From Squalus acanthias (Eukaryota), in the NCBI GenBank assembly GCA_030390025.1, contig CM059431.1, forward strand, positions 127,226,001 to 127,290,000: 64,000 bases of DNA, given 5' to 3'. Below the pieces are notes generated by a model, which was given only the letters and a program-made list of their open reading frames with translations, ran no database searches and was not told the DNA's origin. A program made the position numbers and the translations under genes. Of the stretch, positions 1 through 30,090 are shown piece after piece. How positions within the stretch are numbered: position 1 is the stretch's first letter; every line of letters begins with the position of its first letter.

Positions 1-624
1 GCCTCCTGCTGAGAACCCTCCTCCTCCTCCTCCTCCCTCTGCGAGCAGCTTGTCTTCTTTGCTGCCTCTGCTCCATCTCCATCATGCTGCAGCGCGAGGG
101 GGACTGCAACAAGAGTCCCCATGTCTGGGAGCAAGTGGTGTACTCAGAGGCCTTCCAGTACCAGCCAACATCTTCCCAAAGTCCAGAAGTACTCCCTGCA
201 CACTTTAACAACTTTTTAAATGTCTTCCAGCAACCCAGTACTCCTACAAACACTGCAAGAGCCAGTACAAGAGAAATAATTAACTTACCTGCAAGTTGGA
301 TGTGTCCCTTTAAATAGCACGTATGGGGGGTCCCTCATGCAGCTGAACGCATGTTCAGCTGTCCGTGTTTAGGAGAGGGCATTGATTGGAGTGGCGACAT
401 CCAATATGACAGGTCGTGTGTCAAATCTGTGTTACACGCTGACTGACGTCACGATCTGCCTACTCTGCATACTGCCGGCGTGCGCACATCCCGCCCACGC
501 TATCATCTCAACAAGACAGCGAACAGCGCGGGCTGCACCAGAGGTGGGCCAATGCGAGGCGGACCCCATTTTTTTGTCCAAACTGGCCTTAACTACCGGT
601 GCTAAGGTGCTGAATTTCGCAGCC
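1..624 (-). mobile_element. Terminus of a PIF/Harbinger-type transposon (continues beyond window start)
   Basis: Ends in gctgaatttcgcagcc, whose reverse complement ggctgcgaaattcagc matches the terminal motif of other Harbinger elements here (e.g. ggctgcaaaattcggc at 12701). It is followed by ttt-gt like other insertions. Confidence 0.6.
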
Positions 625-1465
625 TTTGTTCCAATGACTCCACAAATTTCCTGTACAATTCTGAAAGCTTCTTGTTGCTGTTAACTGTTTATTAAGTAAT
701 AAACAATGCCCTCAGCCCCACCAATCACACTCCTATACTCCCTTTGGATGGAAGGTATCTCTTCCTGTTGGCAGATAAAGACCAGAGGCAATGATCTCAA
801 TCAGATCATTTACCATTTATCCGTAAGCCAAGCCAATGACTGTAAAAGTTGGAAACTCCTGCACCCCAATATGCTGGATGCATGCAGGTGTCATCCCTCT
901 CAAAGGCTTCCTTACCCAATCTGCCTAACAAAGGAGAGACTGGGATTACTGACCCTTTGCTTGGATATGCTTCCATTTCAACTGCTACACTATCCAGACA
1001 TTTTACACTGATCTTACATTAGCACACATGATAATCTGATGTCATAGCACTCCGACACTGTGACATGAACAACACTACGTTAGACATCATTGATATTGCA
1101 ATGCCTAGCAACCAACTACTGTTAACACTTCTCATTATGGGCTGGCTTCTGGTTAATGCGGTTGAAAATTGAAACATGGGCTTCCAGCAGAGCAGATGCT
1201 ATGCTGACTGTGTGAGTGCTCAGCTTTGTGCTTCTCGAAATGAAATCTAACCCTATCTTCACTTTATACCAGCAATTAAATGTTGTTTTATATCGGAAAT
1301 CTGCCAAAGATGATTTCAGATAAACAAGTCATTCCTGAATGCCAGCACCAAGAACACTGCAAAATAAACAATCTTGCTTACAATTTCCACAGATGTTCTC
1401 CAGTAGGAAGCTGTTGATACATAGGAATATAGGAACAGGAGCAGGCCTATTTAGCCTGTCGATTC

Positions 1466-1970
1466 CACAACCAATGGATCAGATCAAAGCTCTGCAGTCC
1501 TGCCACAGCCAGTTGTGAATGGTGGTGGACAATAAAACAACTAAAGGGAGGAGGAGGCTCCATGAACATCCCCATCCTCAATGTTGGAGGAGCCCAGCAC
1601 GCGAGTGCAGAAGACAAGGCTGAAGCGTTTGCAACCATCTTCAGCCAGAAGTGCCGAGTGGATGATCCATCTCGGCCTCCTCCTGTGGTCCCCACCATCA
1701 CAGAAGCCTGCCTTCAGCAAATTCGATTCACTCCACATGATATCAAGAAATGTCTGAGCGCACTGGATACAGCAAAGGCTATGGGCTCCAACAACATCCT
1801 GGCTGTCATGCTGAAGACTTGCGCTCCAGAACTAGCCGCGCCTCTAGCCAAGCTGTTCCAGTACAGCCAAAACACTGGCATCTACCCGACAATATGGAAC
1901 ACTGCCCAGGTATGTCCTGTCCACAAAAAGCAGGACAAATCCAATCTAGCCAATTACCGCCCCATCAGTC
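1466..1970 (+). mobile_element. Internal fragment of LINE-A (region upstream of and at the start of RT)
   Basis: ORF 1562-1996 (KAEAFATIFSQKCRVDD...ANYRPIS) is colinear with 7923-8427, roughly 90% identical by eye. Confidence 0.9.
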
Positions 1971-2448
1971 AGGGAATCTGGCGCACACATGCATAATCAT
2001 CTTTTTATGGTTGTAGACGAGCTGCACTTCGAGGGAGTGGAAGCCCTTGTGGTTCACAAACACTCCCGGGTGATGCGATTAGGCGAACAGTAGTGTAGTG
2101 GTAATGTCACTGGGCTAATAATCCAGAGGTCTGGATTAATGATCCAGAGATATGAGTTCAAATCCCATCAGGGCAGCTGGGGAATTTAAATTCAGTTAAT
2201 TAAATAAATCTGGAATAATTACTAGTATCAGTAATGGTAACCATGAAACTATCAGATTGTCGTAAAAACCCATCTGGTTCACTAATGTCTGTTAGAGAAG
2301 GAAATCTGCCATCCTTACCTGGTCTGGCCTATATGTGACTGCAGACCCATAGCAATGTGGTTGACTCTTAACTGCCCTCTGAAATAGCCTAGCAAGTCAC
2401 TCAGTTGTAACAAACTGCTACAAAACAAAATAATAAGAATGAAACCGG
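1968..2448 (+). repeat. Second copy of the Harbinger-transposase/LINE-A 5' junction
   Basis: Colinear with 6366-6850, including the junction gggtgatg(c/t)gattagg(c/g)gaacagtagtgtagtg. Confidence 0.9.
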
Positions 2449-4145
2449 CTCTAAGTTTTAGGCTATGTCCCATAGTCCTAAATTCCCCAACCAGCAGAAA
2501 TAGTTTCTCTCTATCTATCCTATCAGTTCCCGGTAATATCTTGAAAACTTTGATTTAGTCACCCCTTAATCTTCTAAATTCCAGGGAATAGAACCCTAGT
2601 TTGTGTAATCTTTTCTCGTAATTTAACCCTTGGAGTTCAGGTATCATTCTAGTTAATCTACGCTGCACTCCCTCCAAGACCAATATATCCTTCCTAAGGT
2701 GTGGTTCCCAGAACTAAACATAGTACTCCAGGTGTGGTCTAACCAGGGCTTTGTACAGCTGTAGCATGACTTCTACCCCCTTGTATTCTAGTCCTCTAGA
2801 TATAAAGGCCAGCATTCCATTCGCCGTTTTGATTATTTTTTGTATCTGTCCATGAAATTTTAATGATCTATGTACATGGACCCCTAGTTCTTTTTGGACC
2901 TCCATTACTTCTAGTTTTTCATCATTGAGAAAGTACTCTGATCTATCATTTATAGGTCCAAAGTGGCTGACCTCACACTTGCCTATATTGAAATCCATTT
3001 GCCACAGTTTTGCCGATTCACTTAATCTATTAATATAGAAGCATAGAATCATCGAATAGTACAGCACAGAAGGAGGCCATTCAGACCATCGAGTCTGCGC
3101 CGGCTCTTTTGATGAGCAATCCAGTTCGTCCCACTCCCCTGCTCTTTTCCCTATCCCTGCAATTTTTTCTCCTTCAAGTATTTATCTAATTTCCTTTTGA
3201 AGGCTACTATTGAATCTGTATCCACCACCCTAGCAGGCATCGCATTCCAAATTCTAACCATTTGTTGCGTAAAAACGTTTTTCTTCATGTCGCCTCTGGT
3301 TCTTTAGCCAATCACCTTAAACCTGTGCTCTCTCATTATCGAACCTTCAGGCATTGGAAACAGTTTCTCTTTATTTACTCCATCTAAATCCTTCATAATT
3401 TTAAACATCTCTATCAAATCTCCTCTTAGCCTTCTCTGTTCCAAGGAGAACAACCCCAGTTTCTCTAGTCTATCCACGTAACTGTAATCCCTCATCCCTG
3501 GAGCTGTTCGAGTAAATCTTTTCTGTACCCTCTCCAAAGCCTTCACATCCTTTCTAAAGTGTGGTGCCCAGAATTGAACACAATAATCCAGCTGAGGCCT
3601 AACCAGTGTTTTAGAAATATCTCTGTAATTTTATGCTTCCCTCTAAACTCCTTACAAATCCGCCTATCTTTGTGTCATCGGCAAACTTGACCATGTGGCT
3701 CTCTATCCCATCATCGAAACCATTAATAAATACAGTAAATAGTTAAGGCCCCAACACAGATCCCTGTTGGACACCATTAGTCGCATCCTGCCAATTTGAG
3801 TACCCGCCCATTATCCCTACTCTCTGTCTCCTGCCACTCAGTCAATTTCCTAACCGGGTCAATCATTTGCCGTCAATTCAATGAGCTTGAACTTTAGCTA
3901 AAAGTCTCTTATGAGGGCCTTCAGGAAGTCCATGTAAATAACATCCAATGACATGCCCCTGTCTACTACTTCAGTCACCTCTTCAAAAAATTCAGTCAGG
4001 TTCATCAGGCTTGAACTTCCGTTTACAAATCCATGCTAGCTCTCTCTGATGAGCTGAACATTTTCAAGGTGTTCAGTCACTCTATCCTTAATTACAGACT
4101 AGTAATTCCAGACAACAGATGTTAGGATAACTGGTTTATAATTCA
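2449..4145 (-). mobile_element. CR1 LINE ORF2 fragment with a second CR1 3' end nested at ~3034-3617
   Basis: ORFs 2714-3067 (WQMDFNIGKC...LVRPHLEY) and 3304-3546 (LERVQKRFTR...LEQRRLRGDLIE) are typical CR1 C-termini. The inner copy has a short-repeat tail at ~3034-3060. Confidence 0.9.
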
Positions 4146-5598: not shown

Positions 5599-6493
5599 AT
5601 TCACAAGTGTAGCCACTTGGGTACTTTAGTCAATGTTAATGGCAACCATTAAAATCTTTATTTTCACCACTTTCACCGTCTTGGACATTTGTGTGCACCT
5701 TTGGAAGTGGCTTAGTGAGTTGCAGTGAATGGTGAGACACAACGGTACCTCCAGCAATGGTGGTCAGTGTGAAATGAATGGCTTGGTCATTGTAGGGATT
5801 CTTTATGGTGTTGCTTTGTGGTGATGCCAACCTGGCGCAGCATGTGGCAGCCATAAAGGAGTTAAGTAAATCTGGACATGATGAGGCCATCCCTGGCCTC
5901 CCGGGCAGCAATGTGCTTGGGTGCTGGTGGGATCTGGCCTGCAGCTTCCTGCTACTGCTCCTCCTCCTCCTTTTGCTCCTCCTCCTGTGAAGAGGCTGTG
6001 TGCTCAGTGCCTTGCTCCTCATGCAGTGCTAATCCTCGCTGCAGTGCTATGTTGTGCAGGGTGCAGCAGACCACGACGATTCTGCAGACCCTGGCTGGTG
6101 GGTACTGAAGGGCTCCTCCAGATCTATCAAGGCATCTGAAGTGCATTTTCAGCATGCCGATTGTCTGCTCTATGACACATCTGGTGGACATATGGCTTTC
6201 ATTATGTCTCTCCTCGGCCTCAGTACTTGGCCTCCTCAAGGGTGTCATGAGCCACGTTTTCAGTGGATAGTTCTTGTCTCTAAGCAGCCAGCTGGTAAGT
6301 CTGTTTGTCGGTGCGAAGAGCTGAAGGAGGGTGGACTGGCACAGCACGAAAGAGTCATGACAGCTGTCAGGGAATCTGGCGCACACATGCATAATCATCT
6401 TTTTATGGTTGTAGACGAGCTGCACTTTGAGGGAGTGGAAGCCCTTGCGGTTCACAAACACTCCTGGGTGATGTGATTAGGGGAACAGTAGTG

Positions 6494-6567
6494 TAGTGTA
6501 GTGGTAATGTCACTGGGCTAATAATCCACAGGCCTGGACTAATGATCCCGAGACGTGAGTTCAAATC
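6494..6567 (+). promoter_or_regulatory. RNA Pol III type-2 internal promoter (A box and B box) at the LINE-A 5' end
   Basis: A box TAGTGTAGTGG at 6494-6504 fits TRGYNNARNNG. B box GTTCAAATC at 6559-6567 fits GTTCRANNC. Both are also present in the copy at ~2090-2165. Confidence 0.8.
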
Positions 6568-9046
6568 CCATCATGGCAGCTGGGGAATTTAAATTCAGTT
6601 ATTTAAATAAATCTGGAATAATTACTAGTATCAGTAATGGTAACCATGAAACTATCGGATTGTCGTAAAAACACATCTGGTTCACTAATGTCCGTTAGAG
6701 AAGGAAATCTGCCGTCCTTACCTGGTCTGGCCTATATGTGACTCCAGACCCACAGCAATGTGGTTGACTCTTAACTGCCCTCTGAAATGGCCTAGCAAGT
6801 CACTCAGTTGTAACAAACTGCTACAAAACAAAATAATAAGAATGAAACCGGAAGGATCACCCGGCATCGACGTCAGCACCGACTACGGGCACGGCAACGG
6901 CACACCCAGCCCAGTCAACACTGCAAAGTCCTCCTCACCAACATCTGGGGACTTGTGCCAAAACTGGCAGAGCTGTCCCACAGACTAGTCAAGCAACAAC
7001 CTGACATAGTCATACTCACAGAATCATACCTTTCAGCCAATGTCCTGAACTCCTCCATCATCATCCTTGGGTATGTCCTGTCCCAACGGCAGGACAGACC
7101 CACCAGGGGTGGTGGCACAGTGGTATACAGTCGGCAAGGAGTGGCCCTGGGTGTCCTCAACATTGACTCCGGACCCCATGAAGTCTCATGGCTTCTGGCC
7201 AAGCATGGGCAAGGAAACCTCCTGCTGATTACCACCTACCGCCCTCCCACAGCTGATGAATCCATGTTGAACACCACTTGAAAGAAGCACTGAAAGTAGC
7301 AAGGGCAGAGAATGTACTCTGGGTGGGGGACTTCAATGTCCATCACCAAGAGTGGCTCGGTAGCACCACTACTGACCGAGCTTGCCGAGTCCTGAAGGAC
7401 ATAGCTGCCAGTCTGGGCCTGCGACAGGTGGTGAGTAAACCAACAAGAGGGAAAAACCTACTTGACCTCGTCCTCACCAATCTACCTGTCGCAGATGCAT
7501 CTGTCCATGACAGCATTGGCAGCAGTGACCACCACACAGTCATTGTGGAGACGAACTCCCGTCATCACACTGAGAACACCTTCCATCGTGTTGTGTGGCA
7601 CTACCACCGTGCTAAATGGGATAGATTCAGAACAGATCTAGCAGCTCAAAACTGGGCATCCATGAGGCGCTGTGGGCCATCAACAGCAGCAGAATTGTAT
7701 TCAACCACAATCTGTAACCTCATGGCCCGGCATGTCCCTCACTCTGCCATTACCACCAAGCCAGGGGACCAACCCTGGTTCAATAACGAGTGTAGAAGAG
7801 CATGCCAGGAGCAGCACCAGGCGTACCTAAAAATGAGGTGCCAACCTGGGGAAGCTGCAACACAGGACTACATGCATGCTAAAAAGCGGAAGCAGCATGC
7901 TATAGACAGAACTAAGCGATACCACAATCAACGGATCAGATCAAAGCTCTGCCGTCCTGCCACATCCAGTCGAGAATGGTGGTTGACCATTAAACAACTG
8001 ACGGGAGGAGGAGGCTCCATGAATATCCACATCCTCAATGATGGTGGAGCCCAGCACGTGAGTGCAAAAGACAAGGCTGAAGCGTTTGCAACTAACTTCA
8101 GCCAGAAGTGCCGAGTGGATGATCCATATCGGCCTCCTCCCAAGGACCCCACCATCACAGAAGCCAGTCTTCAGCCAATTCGATTCACTCCACGTGATAT
8201 CAAGAAATGGCTGAGCGCACTGGATACAGCAAAGGCTATGGGCACCGACAACATCCCGGCTATCGTGCTGAAGACATGTGCTCCAGAACTAGCCGCGCCT
8301 CTAGCCAAGCTGTTCCAGTACAGCTACAACACTGGCATCTATCCGACAATGTGGAAAACTGCCCAGGTATGTCCTGTCCACAAAAAGCAGGACAAATCCA
8401 ACCCGGCCAATTACCGCCCCATCAGTCTACTCTCAATCATCAACAAAGTGAAGGAAGGTGTCATCGACAGTGTTATCAAGCAGCACTTACTCACCAATAA
8501 CCTGCTCACTGATGCCCAGTTTGGGTTCCGACAAGACCACTCGGCTCCCGACCTCATTACAGCCTTGGTCCAAACATGGACAAAGGAACTGAATTCCAGA
8601 GGTGAGGTGAGAGTGACTGCCCTTGACATCAAGGCAGCATTTGACCGAGTCTGGCATCAAGGAGTCCTAGTAAAACTGAAGTCAATGGGAATCAGGGGGA
8701 AAACAGTCCACTGGCTGGAGTCATACCTAGCACAAAGGAAGATGGTTGTGGTGGTTGAAGGTCAATCATCACAGCCCCAGGACAGCACTGCAGGAGTTCC
8801 TCAGGGCAGTGTCCTAGGCCCAACCATCTTCAGCTGCTTCATCAATGACCTTCCCTCCAACATAAGGTCAGAAATGGGAATGTTCGCTGATGACTGCACA
8901 GTGTTCAGCGCCATTCGCAACTCCACAGATAATGAAGCAGTCCATGCCCACATGCAGCAAGACCTGGACGACGTTCAGGCTTGGGCTGATAAGTGGCAGG
9001 TAACATTCGCGCCACAGAAGTGCTAGGCAATGACTATCTCCAACAA

Positions 9047-9437
9047 TGATGCGGAGATGCCGGTGTTGGACTGGGGTGGACAAAAGTGAGAAGTCGCACA
9101 ACAACAGGTTATAGTCCAACAGATTTATTTGAAATCACAAGCTTTCGGAGCGCTGCTCCTTCATCAGGGAAAGTGAAGAAATACATATGGGCACAGCATA
9201 AATAGTCAGAGAACAATGCTAGACGACTACAGTTAATCTTTCTAACTGACCTTTATCACAGTGTGATAAAGGGCAGTTAGAAAGATTAACTGTAGTCGTC
9301 TGGCATTGTTCTCTGACTATTTATGCTGCGCCCATATGTATTTCTTCACTTCACCTGACGAAGGAGCAGCGCTCCGAAAGCTTGTGATTTCAAATAAAGC
9401 TGTTGGACTATAACCTGGTGTTGTGCGACTTCTCACT
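9047..9437. mobile_element. Non-autonomous Penelope-like fold-back insertion with 12-bp TSD
   Basis: TSD tatctccaacaa at 9035-9046 and 9438-9449. Inverted arms of 177 bp (9084-9260 / 9262-9438), each with a hammerhead core. Confidence 0.85.
9351..9387 (+). ncRNA. Minimal type I hammerhead ribozyme (Penelope-type)
   Basis: tcac-CTGACGA-a-ggagc(agc)gctcc-GAAA-gc-TT-gtga. Stem I tcac/gtga, stem II 5 bp, palindromic stem III AAGCTT. Mirror copy on the minus strand at ~9135-9171. Confidence 0.8.
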
Positions 9438-11939
9438 TATCTCCAACAAGCGAGAGTCTAACCACCTCCCCTTGACATTCAATGGCATTACCATCGCCGA
9501 ATCCCCCACTATCAACATCCTGGGGGTCACCATTAACCAGAAACTTAACTGGACCAGCCACATAAATACTGTGGCAACAAGAGCATGTCAGAGGCTAGGT
9601 ATTCTGTGGCGAGTGTCTCACCTCCTGACTCCCCAAAGCCTTTCCACCATCTACAAGGCACAAGTAAGGAGTGTAATGGAATACTCTCCACTTGCCTGGA
9701 TGAGTGCAGCTCCAGCAACACTCAAGAAGCTCGACACCATCCAGGACAAAGCAGCCCGCTTGATTGGCACCCCATCCACCACCTTAAACATTCACTCCCT
9801 CCACCACCGGTGTACCGTGGCTGCAGTGTGTACCATCGCCAAGATGCACTGCAGCAACTCACCAAGGCTTCTTCGGCAGCACCTCCCAAACCCGCGACCT
9901 CTTCCACCTAGAAGGACAAGGGCAGCAGGAGCATGGGAACACCACCAGCTCCAAGTTCCCCTCCAAGTCACACACCATCCTGACTTAGAAGTATGTCGCC
10001 GATCCTTCATCGTCGCTGGGTCAAAATCCTGGAACTCCCTCCCTAACAGCACTGTGGGAGTACCATCACCACTCGGACTGCAGCGGTTCAAGAAGGCGGC
10101 TCACCACCACCTTCTCAAGGGCAACTAGGGGTGGGCAATAAATGCTGGCCTTGCCAGTGACGCCCAGATCCCATAAACGAATAAAAAAATTTAAAAAATA
10201 TGGGGTTGCCTTGATTGCCACATGTGCGCAATCGATGACACCCTGCACCTGTGGGAAGCCAGCCAGAGCTGCAAAGCCGAGCGCCCGCTCAGTAACACTG
10301 GCGTCATCAGTGGCAAAGTTGATATAATTAGCTGACTTGTGAAACATGGCCTCGATCACCTGGGTGATGCATGTGTGGGCGGCCGACTGCAAGATGCCGC
10401 TAATGTCCACTGCAGATCACTGGGAGGAGCCTGAGGCAAAGAAGTTGAGTGCGTTGGTGACTTTGACAGCCACTGGTCAGGCATATCCACCTGCTCCTCT
10501 GGGCTGCAGGTCTTGCTCGAGCAATGTGCAAATGTCTGCGATGGCCTGGCGCGATAGCCTGAGCCTCCTTTTGCACTGCTGCTCAGTCATGTTGAGGAAG
10601 CTCATCCTCTGCCTGTATACCCTGTGTTGGGGGTATCACCTCCGGCGCGGTGCAGCCCTGCGCTGATGCCCTCTGTCCTGTGCAGCATCAGGTGTTTGAG
10701 GAGAAGGTGGTGGTGTTGTTATTGGTGCTGCTGGTGTGCCTGCTGCTGCTGGTGTTGGGGCTCATCGTGGTCCCATTGTGAGGACCAAGGTGACACAGTA
10801 TAAATGGCACCCATGCTGATGGAATAGATGGCAGGTCAAGTAGAGATCAGAGGAGCAAGCTGTCAATGGTGTGATAGGTTGTAACAATGAGGTGAGACTA
10901 GATGGCAACTTTGCTGGATACACTTGCAGCCTGTAGAAAGCTCAATGTGTGCTGGGAATGCAGCCAGCAACAGCTTCTGCCTGATGAAAATGACCAGCTG
11001 TGAGGTGGGAGGTTTTATAATACATTTCATGCTGTCACCTAATCAGCTGGAGCAATGGCCACTCAACTCCCGTCTCAGGCTGACAGTCGAGGTTCCCGAG
11101 CTGCGTGAATCCCGTGGGCAGCCAGGGAAATTCGAGAGGTAGGCTGAAAACGGCTCTTAGGGGTCTGACAACTACCTGTTAATGATTTGAATTAGGTCGC
11201 CTGCCTCTGCCAATCGGGTCGCTGCCTCACCGGCAAACGTGCCCAAGGGAAAGGCGTGTGGGGGCAGGATGATGGCGGGTTACCGACCCGCTGCAACTTT
11301 TTTCAAATTTCTCTTCTGACCCGCCTCCAATCGCACCCGCGCGGACCCCAGAAAATTCTGGCCATTGTGTGTGCTGTCAACAAATCTGCACAATCATATT
11401 ATGATCCTTACACATAAGCTGGACATTGACAGAGTACAATTCCATCCTATTCATATCGGTGGCACTCTTCTGCAGAACAGCACAAAGGCCAACACGTGTG
11501 CACGCCATCGACCAATCCTTGGATCCTTACCCACGGGTAAAAAGCCAAGTATCTGCCATGTTCTATAACATCTCCTGGGTTCTATAAAGAAGGTAATGTA
11601 TTAGCTAGCTCTGGCAAACAATGCAGTTTTTAATATTCTGAAAGGTTTGTGTCAAAAAATAATTATTTTTGTCTCAGATTTAGTATGTTATTGGGTTCTT
11701 TGATTCTTTTATGCTACATAACTGGTTAAAAGCAGCTTCACTGAAATATAACTCACTGTGATAGTTTTTAAATATGTGTTTGATTGCCACCTTTTTTGAA
11801 TTAAAGAGACAGTTATTTAAATCTGTTTGATTCTGTCTTGTTCTCTCTTGTTCTGTCTGAAGACTTTGAAGGGAGATAGACTGGATCACTTCTGTAGATG
11901 GTGAGAAAAAGAAAGGGGATCGGGAGAACCCCTGCAGAA

Positions 11940-18990: not shown

Positions 18991-21875
18991 AGCCGGATTT
19001 TTCCCGTTGCTGAGTGTGCGGTTTGGGGGCGGGTCAGCAGTAAAAATGCCGGAAATAGCGAGCGCGTCGGGAACCCACTGTCATCCCGCCGCCTTGCGCA
19101 TTTAACTCGAGCGGTTTTGAAGGTGTGACATGGGCCCAATTGGCAGAGGCGGGCGACCTCATTGAAATCATTAATTGCTGGTTGAGAGACCCTTAAGAGT
19201 GATTTTAACACCAGGTTCTGAGTTAAACTTCAGGAGCACGGAATTCACGGAGGTCGAGTACCTCGCCTGTGAAGGGGAGGCGGAAGCTCAGTAGCCATTG
19301 ACAAGTTCATTCATTGACAGCTGGGAAAAGCACATAAATACTGCAACATTACACCTCATTACTTGCCTCATGGAAAGGCTCTTGCTCACTCCATTTTGTC
19401 CACAGATTTCAGTGTCTCCAGCTTGCAGGTCATTTTTGAAATCTCGGAAGCCACTCTCGCCACATTGCTATTCACTATCACAACATTGAGGGATTGGGCC
19501 TCTGATCTCCACTTTACCTGCCATCTACTATAGCAACATGGGTGTCGCTTATACTGTCTCACCTTTGTCCTCAGAATCGGACCAAGATGAGCCCCACCAC
19601 CAACAACACCAGCAACACCAGCATCAGCAGGAGCAACCACAGCAGCAGCCTTCTCCTCAATGACCTGATGCTCCACAGGAGAGAGGGGGCACCACAGAGC
19701 TGCAGTCCGCTGGAGGCGATACCCCCAACACAGGGTATACAGGCAGAGGATGAGCTTCCTCAACATGACTGAGCAGCAGTGCCAAAGGAGGCCAGGTCAT
19801 CACAAACATTTGTAGCTTGCTGGAACAAGACCTGCTGCCCAGAGGTCCTGGTGGACACTCCTTACCAGTGGCTGTCAAAATCACCACCGCACTCAACTTC
19901 TTCACCTCAAGCTCCTTCCAGGGATCCGAGGAAGATTGTGGGGCTCTGACTGAGGGGGGGCAATGGAGGAGAAGTGGGAGTGCTTTGAGAAGAGCTCTCA
20001 CTTCCATGTCCCCTCTCACCATCATCCCTCTCATGGGCCACCCACACTTCCTTGCTAGCAATGCGCTGGCGAGTAACTTGCTGCACAGCAGTGGGGCGAT
20101 GAATGCCCAGGTCTAGGTTTACATCCCTGCTTGAGATGAGGTCTAGGAGCGCCTGCCATCTGTTGTCCACAGCAAGCATGTGCTCATGTGACTGGCGCAT
20201 TTGCTGCTCCATACAGGTGGCCATCCTTTCCATGGAAGAGCACATCTTCGCCATCACCTGCAACATGGTGGTGCGCATGTTGGAGATGGACTCCTCCTTT
20301 CTCTGAACATTTGCAGACATCACGGCTTCAAAAAATTGCCAGAGCCTCATGCAATTGTTGCTGCCTTTCCAAGATCACCCTCTTTCTCGATGGCCCCCGA
20401 GGCTCAGCGTCTGCATTGCAGCTCAGCAGAGCTTGGAGCTTCCTGCGCCCGCCAGCAAGGAGTCTCCACTGCTGTCCCTCTCAACACCACCTTCTCTTGC
20501 TCACTTGTGAATTGTGAGACACCAGGTGACAACTCTACTCTATGACACGAAGGACCCACTGAGGTGTGCGTATCTGTGCTGTTATTGGCTGCGCTTGGGT
20601 CTGCTGATGCTGCACCCTCAGAAAATTGAGCTTCTTCTGAGGAGTCATCTTCCTCCTCTGGCTGGACAATGGGGGTGGTGGCAATGGGCAATTAATGGAC
20701 CTGTGGGAGAGTAAAGAGATGAATTAGAAGTCTTATAATAAGAATGGGTAACATTACCATTATGCACATGATGACATTTCACTGTCTGCTGACATCAGTC
20801 GCCATATGAGTGACTGTTGTATAACTTGAGGCTTTATGAGATGTGATTTTGTCACCAGGTTGCTGGGATGTCCCCCTCTCTCCGCCTCCCACCGCCAGCG
20901 TCTCTCTCGAGCTTCTGAGATCTCCAGAGCCCCCTCCTCTGCTGCTATTAGGTGAGCGAAGTCTGGAGGGCCAACTCTGGTTCTCTCCCTCTCTCTGTTG
21001 TTCTGGGCTCTTTTCTCCTGCAAGGAGGGAAAGAAGAGGAATTTGAGTGAGAGTGATGGAATGAGTCTAAAGAATGAATGGGTTACATCTGCAGAGGGTG
21101 ACAATGAGGGAGTGGGGTGCCAATGCCAAATGCCCTCCTTCTGTGGTGTCACTTGCTATGATTGCATTAGGATGAGGGTGAGTGTGAGATGGGGATATGA
21201 GTAGGTACACAGACAGAGAGGGATGGGTGGACCTGCAAAGTAGGTTGGTGTGAGAAGTGATGTGCAGGAGTAGGCTTGGGAAGGCAGAGTGATGGGGATG
21301 ACAGCCACAGCAGGATAAAGGTGAGTGTGGCATTGCACTCACCTTCCCTACCTCATGAGATCATTGAAGCGTTTCCTGCACTGTATCCAGGTTCTCCTCA
21401 CCACATCTCTGCTGCTGACCTCCTTAGCTATATCCAGCCAGGCTTTTTTTGTTTATTGTGGAGGTCTCCTTCGCCTATTAGCAGGGAAGAGGACTTCCCT
21501 GCTTGCTCTGACTGTCTCCACCAGAGTATGCAGTGATGAGACTGAAATGCGTGGTGCTGCCCTCTGCCTTTGGCTATCCATCCTTGCTACTTTATAAGAG
21601 TACTGTGATCTTTGTTTGTCAGGTTCCACCCTTCTCTAGCAACCTTCAAGTGAGTTGAAAGCAAGGCTGCTTTAAATATCGGCACTGGAAATGAGTCATC
21701 AATGATGTCATCAGATCTCCACCAAATAATAGGGCTGGGAAAAGCGCATGAGTCTTTCAATTGGGGCCATTAAGTTAAAGTCGCTCTGAGCCAAGCGCTG
21801 CTCAGAGCATCGCGTTCCCGACCCATTACGCAGCCCGCACACATCCAACCTGACTCAAAGGTGTAAATTCCAGCC
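18991..21875 (+). mobile_element. Internally deleted Harbinger transposon with both TIRs, TSD TTT
   Basis: ttt at 18988-18990 and 21876-21878. TIRs agccggattt/aaattccagcc. The transposase 5' part (~19538-19930, plus) abuts the Myb-like gene (minus) at a deletion junction near 19930. Confidence 0.88.
19930..21581 (-). pseudogene. Harbinger Myb/SANT-like gene (exon 1 21581-21343, exon 2 21017-20856, exon 3 from 20700)
   Basis: Exon 1 translates MDSQRQRAAPRISVSSLHTLVETVRASREVLFP...KAWLDIAKEVSS...RTWIQCRKRFNDL, a Myb/SANT-like trihelix pattern, with two in-frame stops. GT-AG sites are present. Confidence 0.85.
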
Positions 21876-27859: not shown

Positions 27860-30090
27860 CTTCTTCTTCTTAGGCAGTCTCTCGGAACCGAGGATGACTT
27901 GCTTCCACATTAAAAATGAGTTTGCAGGTGACTGATGAGTCCAATGTGGGACCTACAGTCTCTATCACAGGTGGGGCAGACGGTGGTTGAAGGGGCGGGT
28001 GGGTGGGGTGCTTGGGTTGATGCGCGCTCCTTGCGCTACCTGCGCTTTGCTTCCGCTTGCTCCCGGCGAAGAGGCTCGAGGTGTTCGGCGCCTTCCCGGA
28101 TGCTTCTCCTCCACTTTGTGCGGTCTTGGGCCAGGGATTCCCAGGTGTCGGTGGGGATGTTACACTTTTTCAAGGAGGCTTTGAGAGTGTCCTTGAAGCG
28201 TTTCCTCTGCCCACCTGGGGCTCTCTTGCCGTGCCGGAGCTCCGAGTAGAGCGCTTGTTTTGGGAGTCTCGTATCGGGCATGCGGACAATGTGACCCGTC
28301 CATCGGAGCTGATCGAGCGTGGTCAAAGCTTCGATGCTGGGGATGTTGGCCTGAGCGAGAACACTGGTGTTGGTGCGCCTATCCTGCCAATGGATTTGCA
28401 GGATCTTGCGGAGGCAGCATTGGTGGTACCTCTCCAGTGCTTTGAGGTGCCTGCTGTACATGGTCCATGTCTCTGAGGCATACAGCAGGGCGGGTATCAC
28501 TGCTGCTCTGTAGACCATGAGCTTAGTGCCGGGTTTGAGGTCCTGGTCTTCAAACACTCTCTTCCTCAGGCAACCAAAGGCTGCACTGGCACACTGAAGG
28601 CGGTGTTGGACTTCGTTGTCGACGTCTGCCCTTGTTGACAGTAGGCTCCCGAGGTATGGAAAGTGGTCCACGTTGTCCAAGGCCTTGTCGTGGATTTTGA
28701 TAATTGGGGGGCAGTACTGTGTGGCGGGGGCAGGTTGGTAGAGGACCTTTGTCTTACGGATGTTTAGTGTAAGGCCCATGCTCTCATATGCTTCGGTGAA
28801 GGTGTTAACGATGGTTTGGAGTTTGACCTCCGAGTGAGCGCAGACGCAAGCGTCATCTGCATAATGTAATTCGACGACAGAGGATGGGACGACCTTGGAT
28901 CTGGACTGGAGGCGATGGAGGTTTAACAGTTTCCCGTTTGTTCTGTAAATTAGCTCCACTCCAGCGGGGAGCTTACTGAGGGTGAGATGGAGCATTGCAG
29001 CAAGGAAGATCGAGAAGAGCGTTGGTGCGATGACACAGCCTTGCTTGACCCCGGTTCGTACGTGAATTGGGTCTGTGGTGGAACCGTTGGTCAGGATCAC
29101 GGCTTGCATGTCGTCATGAAGCAGGCGGAGGATGGTGACAAACTTTTGAGGACAGCCGAATTTGAGGAGGACACTCCATAATCCCTCACGGTTGACAGTG
29201 TCGAATGCCTTTGTGAGATCAAAGAAGGCCATGTACAGCGGTTGGTGCTGTTCCCTGCATTTCTCTTGTAATTGACGTGCGGTGAAGATCATGTCCATTG
29301 TGTCCCTTAGTGGGCGGAATCCACATTGCGACTCTGGGAGGAGCTCTTCGGCCACTGGGAGAAGGCGATTTTCGGAGGATTCTTGCGATGACTTTCCCTG
29401 TGGCAGACAGCAGGGAAACTCCTCTGTAATTACCGCAATCGGAGTGGTCACCTTTCTTGAAGATGGTCACAATTACGGCGTCTCTGAGATCCCCTGGAAT
29501 GCTCTCCTCCTTCCAGATAAGAGAAATGAGTTCATGAATTCACGCCAGTAGTGCTTCTCCGCCATGCTTTAGTGCCTCGGCGGGGATTCCATCTGCTCCT
29601 GAGGCCTTGTTGTTCTTCAGTTGTCGGATGGCATTTTCAACCTCATGCCGGGCTGGGGTTGTGCTGAGATGGTGGCGGGTAACATGCTGCGGGATGCAGT
29701 TGAGGACACTCGCGTCGAAGACAGAGTCGCGGTTAAGGAGATCTTCGAAGTGCTCCTTCCAGCGGGCACTGACTGCCTCTCTGTCCTTGATGAGTACCTC
29801 TCCGTTCTTGGCCCGCGGTGGGGTAGGGCCTTGGGTGCTTGGGCCGTAGATGGTCTTGACTGTGCTAAAGAATCCACGCACGTCGTGGTTGTCAGCTAGC
29901 TGCTGGATCTCCTGCGCTTTCTCCACCCACCATCTGTTCTTTACGTCGCGAGTTTTTTGTTGGACCTCGGCCTTCAGGCGTCTGTAGAGCTGCTTTCTTG
30001 CTCTCGAGTTCAGTTGCTGTTTCCAGATCAGGATGCAGTTGAGGACACTGCGCTTGCGGCTTATTAGCTCCTGGATCTCCTGGTCGTTCC
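27860..30090 (-). mobile_element. RTE-clade LINE, 5'-truncated, with 62-bp TSD
   Basis: ORF 28036-29451: LPESQCGFRP...QEKCREQ...FFDLTKAFD...GVKQGC...YADD...QLRWTGH. (GAA)n tail. Flanking direct repeat at 27798-27859 / 30091-30152. Confidence 0.93.

Follow-up and report, generated by a model that had tools for sequence, protein, structure and literature searches.

A 64,000-nucleotide (nt) stretch of the Squalus acanthias genome (contig CM059431.1 of assembly GCA_030390025.1, positions 127,226,001 to 127,290,000 of the forward strand; in the following called the window) contains at positions 6481-10199 of the plus strand a decayed but full-length copy of a long interspersed nuclear element (LINE) of a family of about 3.3 kb that starts with a tRNA-derived head. 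It is almost certain that this copy represents an abundant and recently active family of tRNA-headed LINEs with a single open reading frame (ORF), accompanied by a short interspersed nuclear element (SINE) of matching build. To our knowledge, this architecture is undescribed, although a description that is unpublished or confined to a catalogue is possible; our search for an autonomous LINE with a tRNA-derived head, which covered the full-text literature and not Repbase or Dfam, found no description. The chances that RNA polymerase III (Pol III) makes the full-length template for retrotransposition appear to be about even, judged indirectly from the promoter boxes, the discrete start, the avoidance of oligo-T and a leader that is awkward for RNA polymerase II (Pol II). 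A more far-reaching reading, to which we assign a probability of roughly 0.35, is that the autonomous LINE would be a natural protein-coding Pol III unit that is kept free of T runs by selection, is translated without a cap or a conventional start codon, and repeatedly sheds its ORF to give the SINE.

A first-pass annotation of the window, made from the sequence alone, had placed a tRNA-type A box and B box at the start of the element, and both are present as described. The head covers positions 6481..6575 of the plus strand, with the A box (TAGTGTAGTGG) at 6494-6504 and the B box at 6558-6568 (core GTTCAAATC at 6559-6567). The A box of this copy carries a CpG to TpG change relative to the family form. 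Whereas the tRNA-type nature of the head was recognized correctly, the proposed start at 6476 had to be shifted to about 6481, since the sequence immediately 5′ of this position is part of a minus-strand, Harbinger-like transposase frame, which resumes at about 10198. The window copy opens with GGGGAACAGTAGTGTAGTGTAGTGG and shows a small internal duplication; the 5′ end of the family is GGGAACGGTAGCGTAGTGG. The head is followed by the body or leader (6576..6812, plus strand), which contains two AATAAA hexamers and several out-of-frame ATGs and which, in an alignment of 10 SINE copies with the LINE 5′ end, matches the partner SINE base for base up to ...CACTCAGTTGTA. The figure of about 330 nt given earlier for the leader holds for head and leader together; about 245 nt of this length lie 3′ of the B box, and the frame encoding endonuclease (EN) and reverse transcriptase (RT) comes next. 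As claimed, this frame is not preceded by an ORF1, for which there would be no room. The sole frame upstream is an ATG-initiated frame of 48 codons at 6842..6988 (plus strand), which differs in phase from the EN-RT frame and overlaps its first part.

The EN-RT frame of the window copy, likewise on the plus strand, begins with the N-terminal part of the endonuclease at 6814..7281 (KVLLTNIWGL...DIVILTE...; Exo_endo_phos, E = 1.3e-4; 90% identity to the protein of the majority sequence described below). It is split by one frameshift near 7260-7281 and continues with the C-terminal part of the endonuclease and the reverse transcriptase at 7260..9046 (RVT_1, E = 4.3e-36; Exo_endo_phos_2, E = 5.2e-11; 93.6% identity to the majority protein). 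The open frame from 7260 to 9026 is interrupted by an insert at 9047, and the C-terminal domain of the same ORF is found at 9438..10128, ending with the stop codon TAG at 10126-10128 (94.9% identity to residues 740-973 of the majority protein). The 3′ tail that the LINE has in common with the partner SINE (10114..10189, plus strand) extends from TCAAGGGCAA..., 12 nt 5′ of the stop codon, to ...CGAATAAAAAAA and includes two AATAAA hexamers and a predicted hairpin, GCTGGCCTTGCCAG(C/T), at 10144-10158. After the terminal A run, TTTAAAAAAT follows at 10190..10199 of the same strand.

In the family sequence, the A box (TAGCGTAGTGG, nt 9-19) fits the A-box consensus TRGCNNAGTGG, and the B box (AGTTCAAATCC) is located at nt 73-83, separated from the A box by 53 nt. 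With this workable spacing and a start some 10 nt 5′ of the A box, the sequence has the layout of a Pol III type-2 promoter. Of the 61 distinct LINE heads examined, 39 still match the A box and 48 the B box. Both boxes are retained in the family master, including old headed copies with 80-90% identity. In five of six well-kept heads, the Rfam tRNA model recovered D, anticodon, and T arms together with a long variable region, at scores of 17.5-26.6 bits, which remained under the gathering score of 29; in the window copy, no match was obtained at E ≤ 1. ARAGORN reported no tRNA in the window at its standard threshold and called the head only at a relaxed threshold, as a tRNA-Thr(AGT)-like sequence with a long variable arm. 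Among distant relatives, no tRNA head was called by ARAGORN at 15 metagenome loci, and neither A nor B box motifs were present upstream of the ORF in any of 12 relatives.

The recurrence of the junction between head, leader, and ORF, which had been proposed as a check, was analyzed in the source genome (3.71 Gb, 3,882 contigs). With a query consisting of head, leader, and EN start, all 40 scored matches spanned the junction, with 92-94% identity (own locus aside) and distributed over many contigs; they ran from query position 18-28, in most cases 18, to 617-625. The upstream flanks were unrelated at all 30 loci compared, and most copies began with the family 5′ end given above. Since this query contained the head, its junction count is biased. 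A query restricted to the leader gave 30 loci, 27 of which run on into the ORF, the other three being the segmental duplicate present in the window, an internally deleted copy (L047), and one short piece. As the leader query also held SINE-type sequence, a sample was drawn from the ORF start instead. A 24-mer from the EN start had 3,790 exact matches in the genome compared to none for the reversed control. The ORF start is thus present at least 3,790 times in the family, and the first 20 of these places on contig C1 served as an unbiased 5′ sample. All 20 copies were collinear with the leader. Nine of them start at base 1, two at base 4-5, and nine are truncated at bases 74-336; 11 of the 20 copies therefore reach the first five bases of the head, and an alternative 5′ sequence was found in none. 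Copies only 80-88% identical to the majority sequence still contain head, leader, and ORF start. This LINE lineage therefore has the head as its regular 5′ end in copies of different ages, from about 2% to 20% divergence. Two loci (L094 and L104) have a SINE-type variant of the head. Contigs of four other organisms, of unknown library type, cover leader and ORF and show the SINE-type junction. On a contig of one organism, designated C, the leader is joined to the ORF by a shorter linker ending with ATG, which may be in frame, the joint being ambiguous by one base.

Of 20 copies fetched in full, 18 extend to the 3′ tail and have lengths of about 3.25-3.3 kb. A majority sequence was built from 18 copies, 17 fetched ones and the window copy. 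It comprises 3,312 nt with a single open frame of 973 codons (nt 330-3251), from which the copies diverge by 2.4-4.1%. Neither an ORF1 nor any other frame of more than 120 codons is present in this sequence, and Pfam detects an APE-type endonuclease and RVT_1 in one element. A length of 3,312 nt and a 973-codon frame do not agree with the small size (below about 700 bp) and non-coding nature of SINEs; being long and coding, the element is not a SINE, although every SINE module is present. A tree of the 37 distinct copies most similar to the window copy was star-like and revealed no deep subfamilies among them, its shape indicating one recent burst. In the genome, a 24-mer from the 3′ part of the ORF had 39,230 exact matches. 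Copies of the ORF start thus amount to about one-tenth of the copies of the 3′ part, which corresponds to the usual 5′-truncation profile of LINEs. Target-site duplications above the control rate were not found (a flank repeat of ≥ 7 nt in one of 17 copies). The closest named database proteins are fragments in gene models of Heptranchias perlo with 70-88% identity; all other database proteins have at most 49% identity and are either unnamed or auto-named "jockey-like". The ORF and the tail look CR1/L2-like, judging from the tail hairpin, the lack of target-site duplications, and C-terminal motifs. As in CR1/L2-type elements, the tail has a predicted stem-loop (GCTGGCCTTGCCAGC), which is common to LINE and partner SINE, and target-site duplications are absent or short.

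According to the first-pass annotation, the sense strand of the LINE copy is devoid of runs of four or more T (T4), which was confirmed. The sense strand of the window at 6476-10199 contains no T4 and 17 runs of four or more A, a count that includes a foreign insert of 391 bp. The majority sequence likewise has no T4 on its sense strand, with 15, 11, and nine corresponding runs of A, C, and G, respectively. Two conditions named beforehand as refuting the proposal, several sense-strand T4 runs or an ORF1 in the consensus, therefore do not apply. T4 is also missing in 15 of 17 copies, whereas the other two have one each, located in the terminal tail. The previous estimate of about five expected T4 runs holds for a mononucleotide model (5.5 for the window copy and 3.8 for the majority sequence), but 1.6-2.2 per copy were expected from dinucleotide-preserving shuffles and 1.6 from synonymous-codon shuffles (P = 0.15 for none), with P values for none of about 0.10-0.23 over both types of shuffling. 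The statistical weight given to the T4 absence alone was therefore overstated; the depletion concerns runs of three or more T (T3+) and codon junctions with T on both sides. The majority ORF contains five T3+ runs compared to 11.4 expected from synonymous shuffles (P 0.004-0.006) and eight such T-T junctions compared to 23.5 ± 4.1 expected (P = 5e-5, 20,000 codon-order permutations), whereas runs and junctions of A, C, and G are at expectation. The codon choice in the ORF follows the same line, with 15 TTC versus three TTT and 82 CTN versus nine TTR codons.

As controls, we used 14 related LINE ORFs from metagenome contigs, which have 4-33 T4 each, observed-to-expected ratios of 0.89-1.27 for T3 and of 0.68-1.12 for T-T junctions; two of them with equal T content (0.20) have 4-5 T4 each. 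A further control was a LINE of another family in the window (28036-29644, minus strand; RVT_1, a 476-codon open frame, 28-31% identity to the RT of the family, the same T content at 0.19), for which eight T-T junctions compared to 10.2 expected and eight T3 runs compared to 9.1 expected were counted. A depletion of T3+ runs and T-T junctions was observed in none of the 15 control frames. Fragments of the LINE family elsewhere in the window contain a single T4 in 3,560 nt, at 31016-19, in agreement with the earlier statement that they are almost free of such runs. The complementary statement that neighboring CR1 copies have many such runs can be set beside the pieces of other LINE families in the window, which together contain 15 T4 in 4,783 nt, but the longest of them, the 1,609-nt control LINE mentioned above, has none. 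The avoidance of T runs in the family is specific for T and for the sense strand, a pattern to be expected if Pol III terminators were selected against.

The existence of a SINE derivative composed of head and tail had been predicted, and such a SINE was indeed found. It consists of the head, the body, and the tail of the LINE without the ORF. A pattern combining leader end and tail start had 88 exact matches in the genome, compared to none for the control, with several recurrent junction forms. The 10 aligned SINE copies have the same head as the LINE, the same body up to CACTCAGTTGT(A), and the LINE tail starting at TCAAGGGCAA. One junction form retains extra bases from the end of the LINE ORF (GTA followed by CCTTCTCAAGGGCAA), and some SINE copies have diagnostic bases in common with the young LINE. 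At locus L047 (G000:C19, ~51.07 Mb), a LINE with an internal deletion was found in which nt 413 is joined to the last 200 nt; this junction is unlike the common SINE forms, making the copy an independent SINE-like derivative. The retained ORF-end bases, the common diagnostic bases, and the L047 deletion suggest that the LINE has lost its ORF repeatedly. Most likely, the SINE subfamilies arose from the LINE repeatedly by internal deletion or template switching from leader end to tail start, and descent in the reverse direction, from SINE to LINE, is possible. The SINE body may be of the SacSINE1-type DeuSINE kind; sequence words from the body, used to look for a Deu or V domain name, had no match in the literature searched. 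With respect to the 3′ ends, five of the 18 full-length copies carry a run of 3-11 T directly after the terminal A run, followed by AAAT or AAT. These are the window copy (10190-10199) and those at loci L069, L072, L075, and L076. The T run could be a terminator footprint in the form of carried-over oligo-U, a consequence of tail slippage, or a target preference.

A LINE promoter must lie within the transcript, and under transcription by Pol III the head would be the portable internal promoter of the element. TFIIIC and TFIIIB would bind to the A and B boxes, and Pol III would initiate at base 1 of the element. With a sense strand kept free of T4 terminators, it could read through all 3.3 kb, and it would stop in a T run downstream. 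The RT would recognize the 3′ hairpin and the tail, either in cis on the LINE RNA or in trans on the SINE RNA, and would copy the RNA into a new site, often with truncation of the 5′ end. An uncapped RNA of this kind would require non-canonical translation: the frame lacks an in-frame ATG close to its start, and out-of-frame ATGs abound in the leader. The ACG at nt 339 might act as a near-cognate start; a canonical slippery heptamer for a -1 frameshift from the 48-codon frame was not seen when the overlap was read by eye.

Several points weigh against this reading. In the majority sequence, the first in-frame ATG of the EN-RT frame does not occur before nt 1188. The lone nearby ATG at nt 358, with A at position -3, opens the 48-codon frame in another phase, and its spacing to the EN motif is the same in 38 of 50 distinct copies, which shows that it is out of frame family-wide. 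As a consequence, translation is unexplained under any model, and the burst could have moved in trans. The first 522 nt are no stabler than shuffled sequences (z = +0.72), so that nothing points to a structured entry site, and no Rfam family was detected for the leader in the window, the only matches being hairpins in the foreign insert. None of the 18 full-length copies has an intact ORF; one candidate among 74 scored matches has an open frame of 971 amino acids, but its ORF start carries deletions. T4 absence, though real, is by itself weak and not significant evidence (0 versus 1.6-1.8 expected, P ~0.15), and the control LINE in the window likewise has no T4 in 1.4-1.6 kb. The T-run controls consist of distantly related LINEs from other organisms and one copy in the window rather than of sister families from this genome. 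In addition, AATAAA, which usually serves as poly(A) signal for Pol II, is present in the tail at nt 3260 and 3303 with an A run behind it, and the SINE has AATAAA too. Uncapped Pol III RNAs are translated poorly, and we know of no natural Pol III transcript of 3.3 kb, nor of one acting as mRNA. Transcription by Pol III is plausible.

These points leave room for other explanations. The element may be a LINE transcribed by Pol II whose 5′ end was borrowed from a SINE, having gained head and body through template switching or recombination with the partner SINE, or, in a variant of this model, a LINE whose 5′ UTR (untranslated region) had always been the SINE body and which gained only the head through homology. 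We regard this explanation as possible but tentative. The 5′ module would then be a 5′ UTR or an internal Pol II promoter, which also predicts a discrete 5′ end, and the RNA would be capped and polyadenylated at the terminal AATAAA, in line with the signals and the A run in the tail. Absence of T4 alone fits the base composition, the LINE promoters described to date are all of the Pol II type, a view stated by Kojima (2018; PMC5786205), and SINE bodies derived from LINE 5′ UTRs are already known. Transcription by Pol II gives no reason, however, for the avoidance of T3+ runs and T-T junctions, which is T- and sense-specific and not found in the 15 control frames. A and B boxes are retained in the family master and in old headed copies (80-90% identity). 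A Pol II origin also has to cope with the leader, where AATAAA hexamers at nt 121 and 132, thus 120-135 nt from the 5′ end, and eight ATGs ahead of nt 358 and the ORF region are awkward for a capped and scanned Pol II mRNA.

A further explanation, which we consider unlikely, is that Pol III makes the 3.3-kb RNA only as a template, comparable to a long SINE, while EN and RT are supplied in trans by rare Pol II read-through transcripts or by a related, properly initiated LINE, so that the burst was effectively non-autonomous. The T-run avoidance, the star-like single burst, the fact that 38 of 50 copies lack an ATG in frame close to the ORF start, the absence of intact ORFs in the 18 full-length copies, and the fact that the machinery clearly acts in trans on the SINE are in line with this explanation. 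That the majority sequence keeps 973 codons open argues instead that the frame of the master was under selection until recently. Moreover, LINE proteins usually prefer their own RNA, and a separate donor family with an ATG was not found in a search that was not exhaustive. A one-off chimera of the U6/L1 type, or a SINE lying next to a 5′-complete LINE at this locus only, was refuted, the junction recurring at all sampled independent loci, and we give it next to no credence. The missing tRNA calls by ARAGORN and Rfam in the window copy and a second head at 2078, which resembled a separate SINE, had spoken for it. This second head is part of a segmental duplicate, and the junction is present in all 40 matches of the head-containing query and at 27 of 30 leader-only loci with unrelated flanks, as well as in the ORF-seeded copies, all 20 of which are collinear with the leader and 11 of which reach the head.

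Eel UnaL2 and zebrafish ZfL2-2 are compact L2/CR1-type LINEs of about 3.3 kb with one EN-RT ORF and a 3′ hairpin plus short terminal repeat that is recognized by the RT. They resemble the element in that a SINE with the same tail is mobilized in trans and target-site duplications are lacking, but their 5′ UTRs, unlike that of the element, are not known to be tRNA-derived. UnaL2 is listed as the partner of UnaSINE1/2 in a published table. The elasmobranch pairs HE1/HER1 and SacSINE1/"CR1-4_DR-like" are listed by Ohshima (2013; PMC3747384). SINE2 elements with LINE-derived tails, such as the DeuSINE SacSINE1, for which L2-2_CM is an alternative partner, and the V-SINE HE1, share with the element the succession of tRNA head, conserved body, and LINE-shared tail, and the local partner SINE has these three modules in common with it almost base for base. 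The element differs from SINE2 by its size of 3.3 kb and by the 973-codon EN-RT frame between body and tail. Excerpts of Luchetti (2017; PMC5499810) describe a similarity between SacSINE1-CM and the chimaera LINE L2-2_CM in the tail only.

LINE 5′ parts within SINE bodies are reported in the excerpted text of Kojima (2018; PMC5786205) only for the RTE and Vingi clades. In Bov-tA/Bov-B, AfroSINE and other RTE-derived SINEs, and SINE2-1_ACar/Vingi, the SINE body corresponds to the LINE 5′ UTR and the tail to the LINE 3′ UTR, and internal deletion or template switching is the generating step, as is most likely in the present case. The same excerpts assign LINEs to Pol II and SINEs to Pol III and propose that heads were added to deleted LINE derivatives. 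In such systems the head is thus found on the short derivative only, the autonomous LINE being head-less and taken as a Pol II unit, whereas here the coding element is headed. The trypanosome pairs ingi/RIME and L1Tc/NARTc likewise consist of a long coding element and a short deletion derivative with a common promoter-bearing 5′ end and a common 3′ end; unlike the head described here, their 5′ module Pr77 does not derive from a tRNA and is, according to PMC1874656, a promoter for Pol II located within the element. Chimeras of U6 and L1 and of other small RNAs and LINEs arise via template switching of the RT (Buzdin, 2002; Garcia-Perez, 2007; both as cited in Kojima, 2015; PMC4494074). They resemble the element in having a Pol III-type RNA joined to the 5′ side of a LINE and offer a plausible route for the acquisition of the head. 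They are, however, single events with truncated LINE pieces that do not propagate, whereas the junction described here is standard in thousands of copies of several ages.

SINEs are defined as non-coding Pol III parasites of LINEs, and a LINE lineage that keeps a tRNA-type head blurs the division between Pol II LINEs and Pol III SINEs. The family provides a system for asking whether Pol III can make a long translated RNA in a vertebrate and how an ORF without start codon behind an ATG-rich leader is translated. If the element were indeed a protein-coding Pol III LINE, at least one conserved SINE "body" would be the 5′ leader of such a LINE. With head, body, and tail common to both elements, deletion or exchange between LINE and SINE can be traced by subfamily, which bears on the origin of SINE heads and bodies. 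Considering the size of the family (at least 39,230 matches of the 3′-ORF word), its 5′ module supplies the genome with thousands of potential sites for TFIIIC and Pol III.

With respect to the locus, the LINE copy interrupts a decayed transposase frame on the minus strand (5952-6476 and 10198-10416; also at 19455-19926), which we presume from its motifs to be Harbinger/PIF-like. One flank reads ..IDCAHVAIKATPY, and the frame continues in the other flank. The continuity of this frame across both flanks indicates that head and LINE were inserted as one piece. An empty paralogous site for this insertion was not found among the sequences examined. A related Harbinger/PIF-like copy with an internal deletion is present at locus L015. 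The segmental duplicate at 1968..2448 (plus strand) corresponds to 6366-6851 and comprises 111 nt of flank (96% identity), the head, the leader, and the first ORF bases. Because the flank of the main copy was duplicated together with it, the second head at 2078 is not an independent insertion. The region 1460-2448 of the window is rearranged, an internal piece of the LINE at 1460-1970 (element nt 1442-1952) abutting the segmental duplicate. Further 3′ fragments of the LINE family are present in the window.

The 391-bp insert in the RT region (9047..9437, no strand assigned) is a near-perfect palindromic foldback element with a target duplication of about 12 bp (TATCTCCAACAA). Full-length copies match element positions 18-2571 and 2963-3714 in direct succession, the two matches overlapping by about 12 nt, which shows that the insert is foreign to the LINE. 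In Rfam, it gave miRNA-precursor-like matches below threshold (MIR6288, 52.5 bits compared to a gathering score of 74). The foldback element was also seen at loci L015, L019, L026, L037, L048, L057, L070, and L080. At another locus (L153, G000:C3445), a headed copy of the LINE, whose head is short by four bases, is located directly 3′ of a tandem array with at least five copies of a 23-nt unit (GTGTAATATAAACAGAGACAGGGTCTA...).

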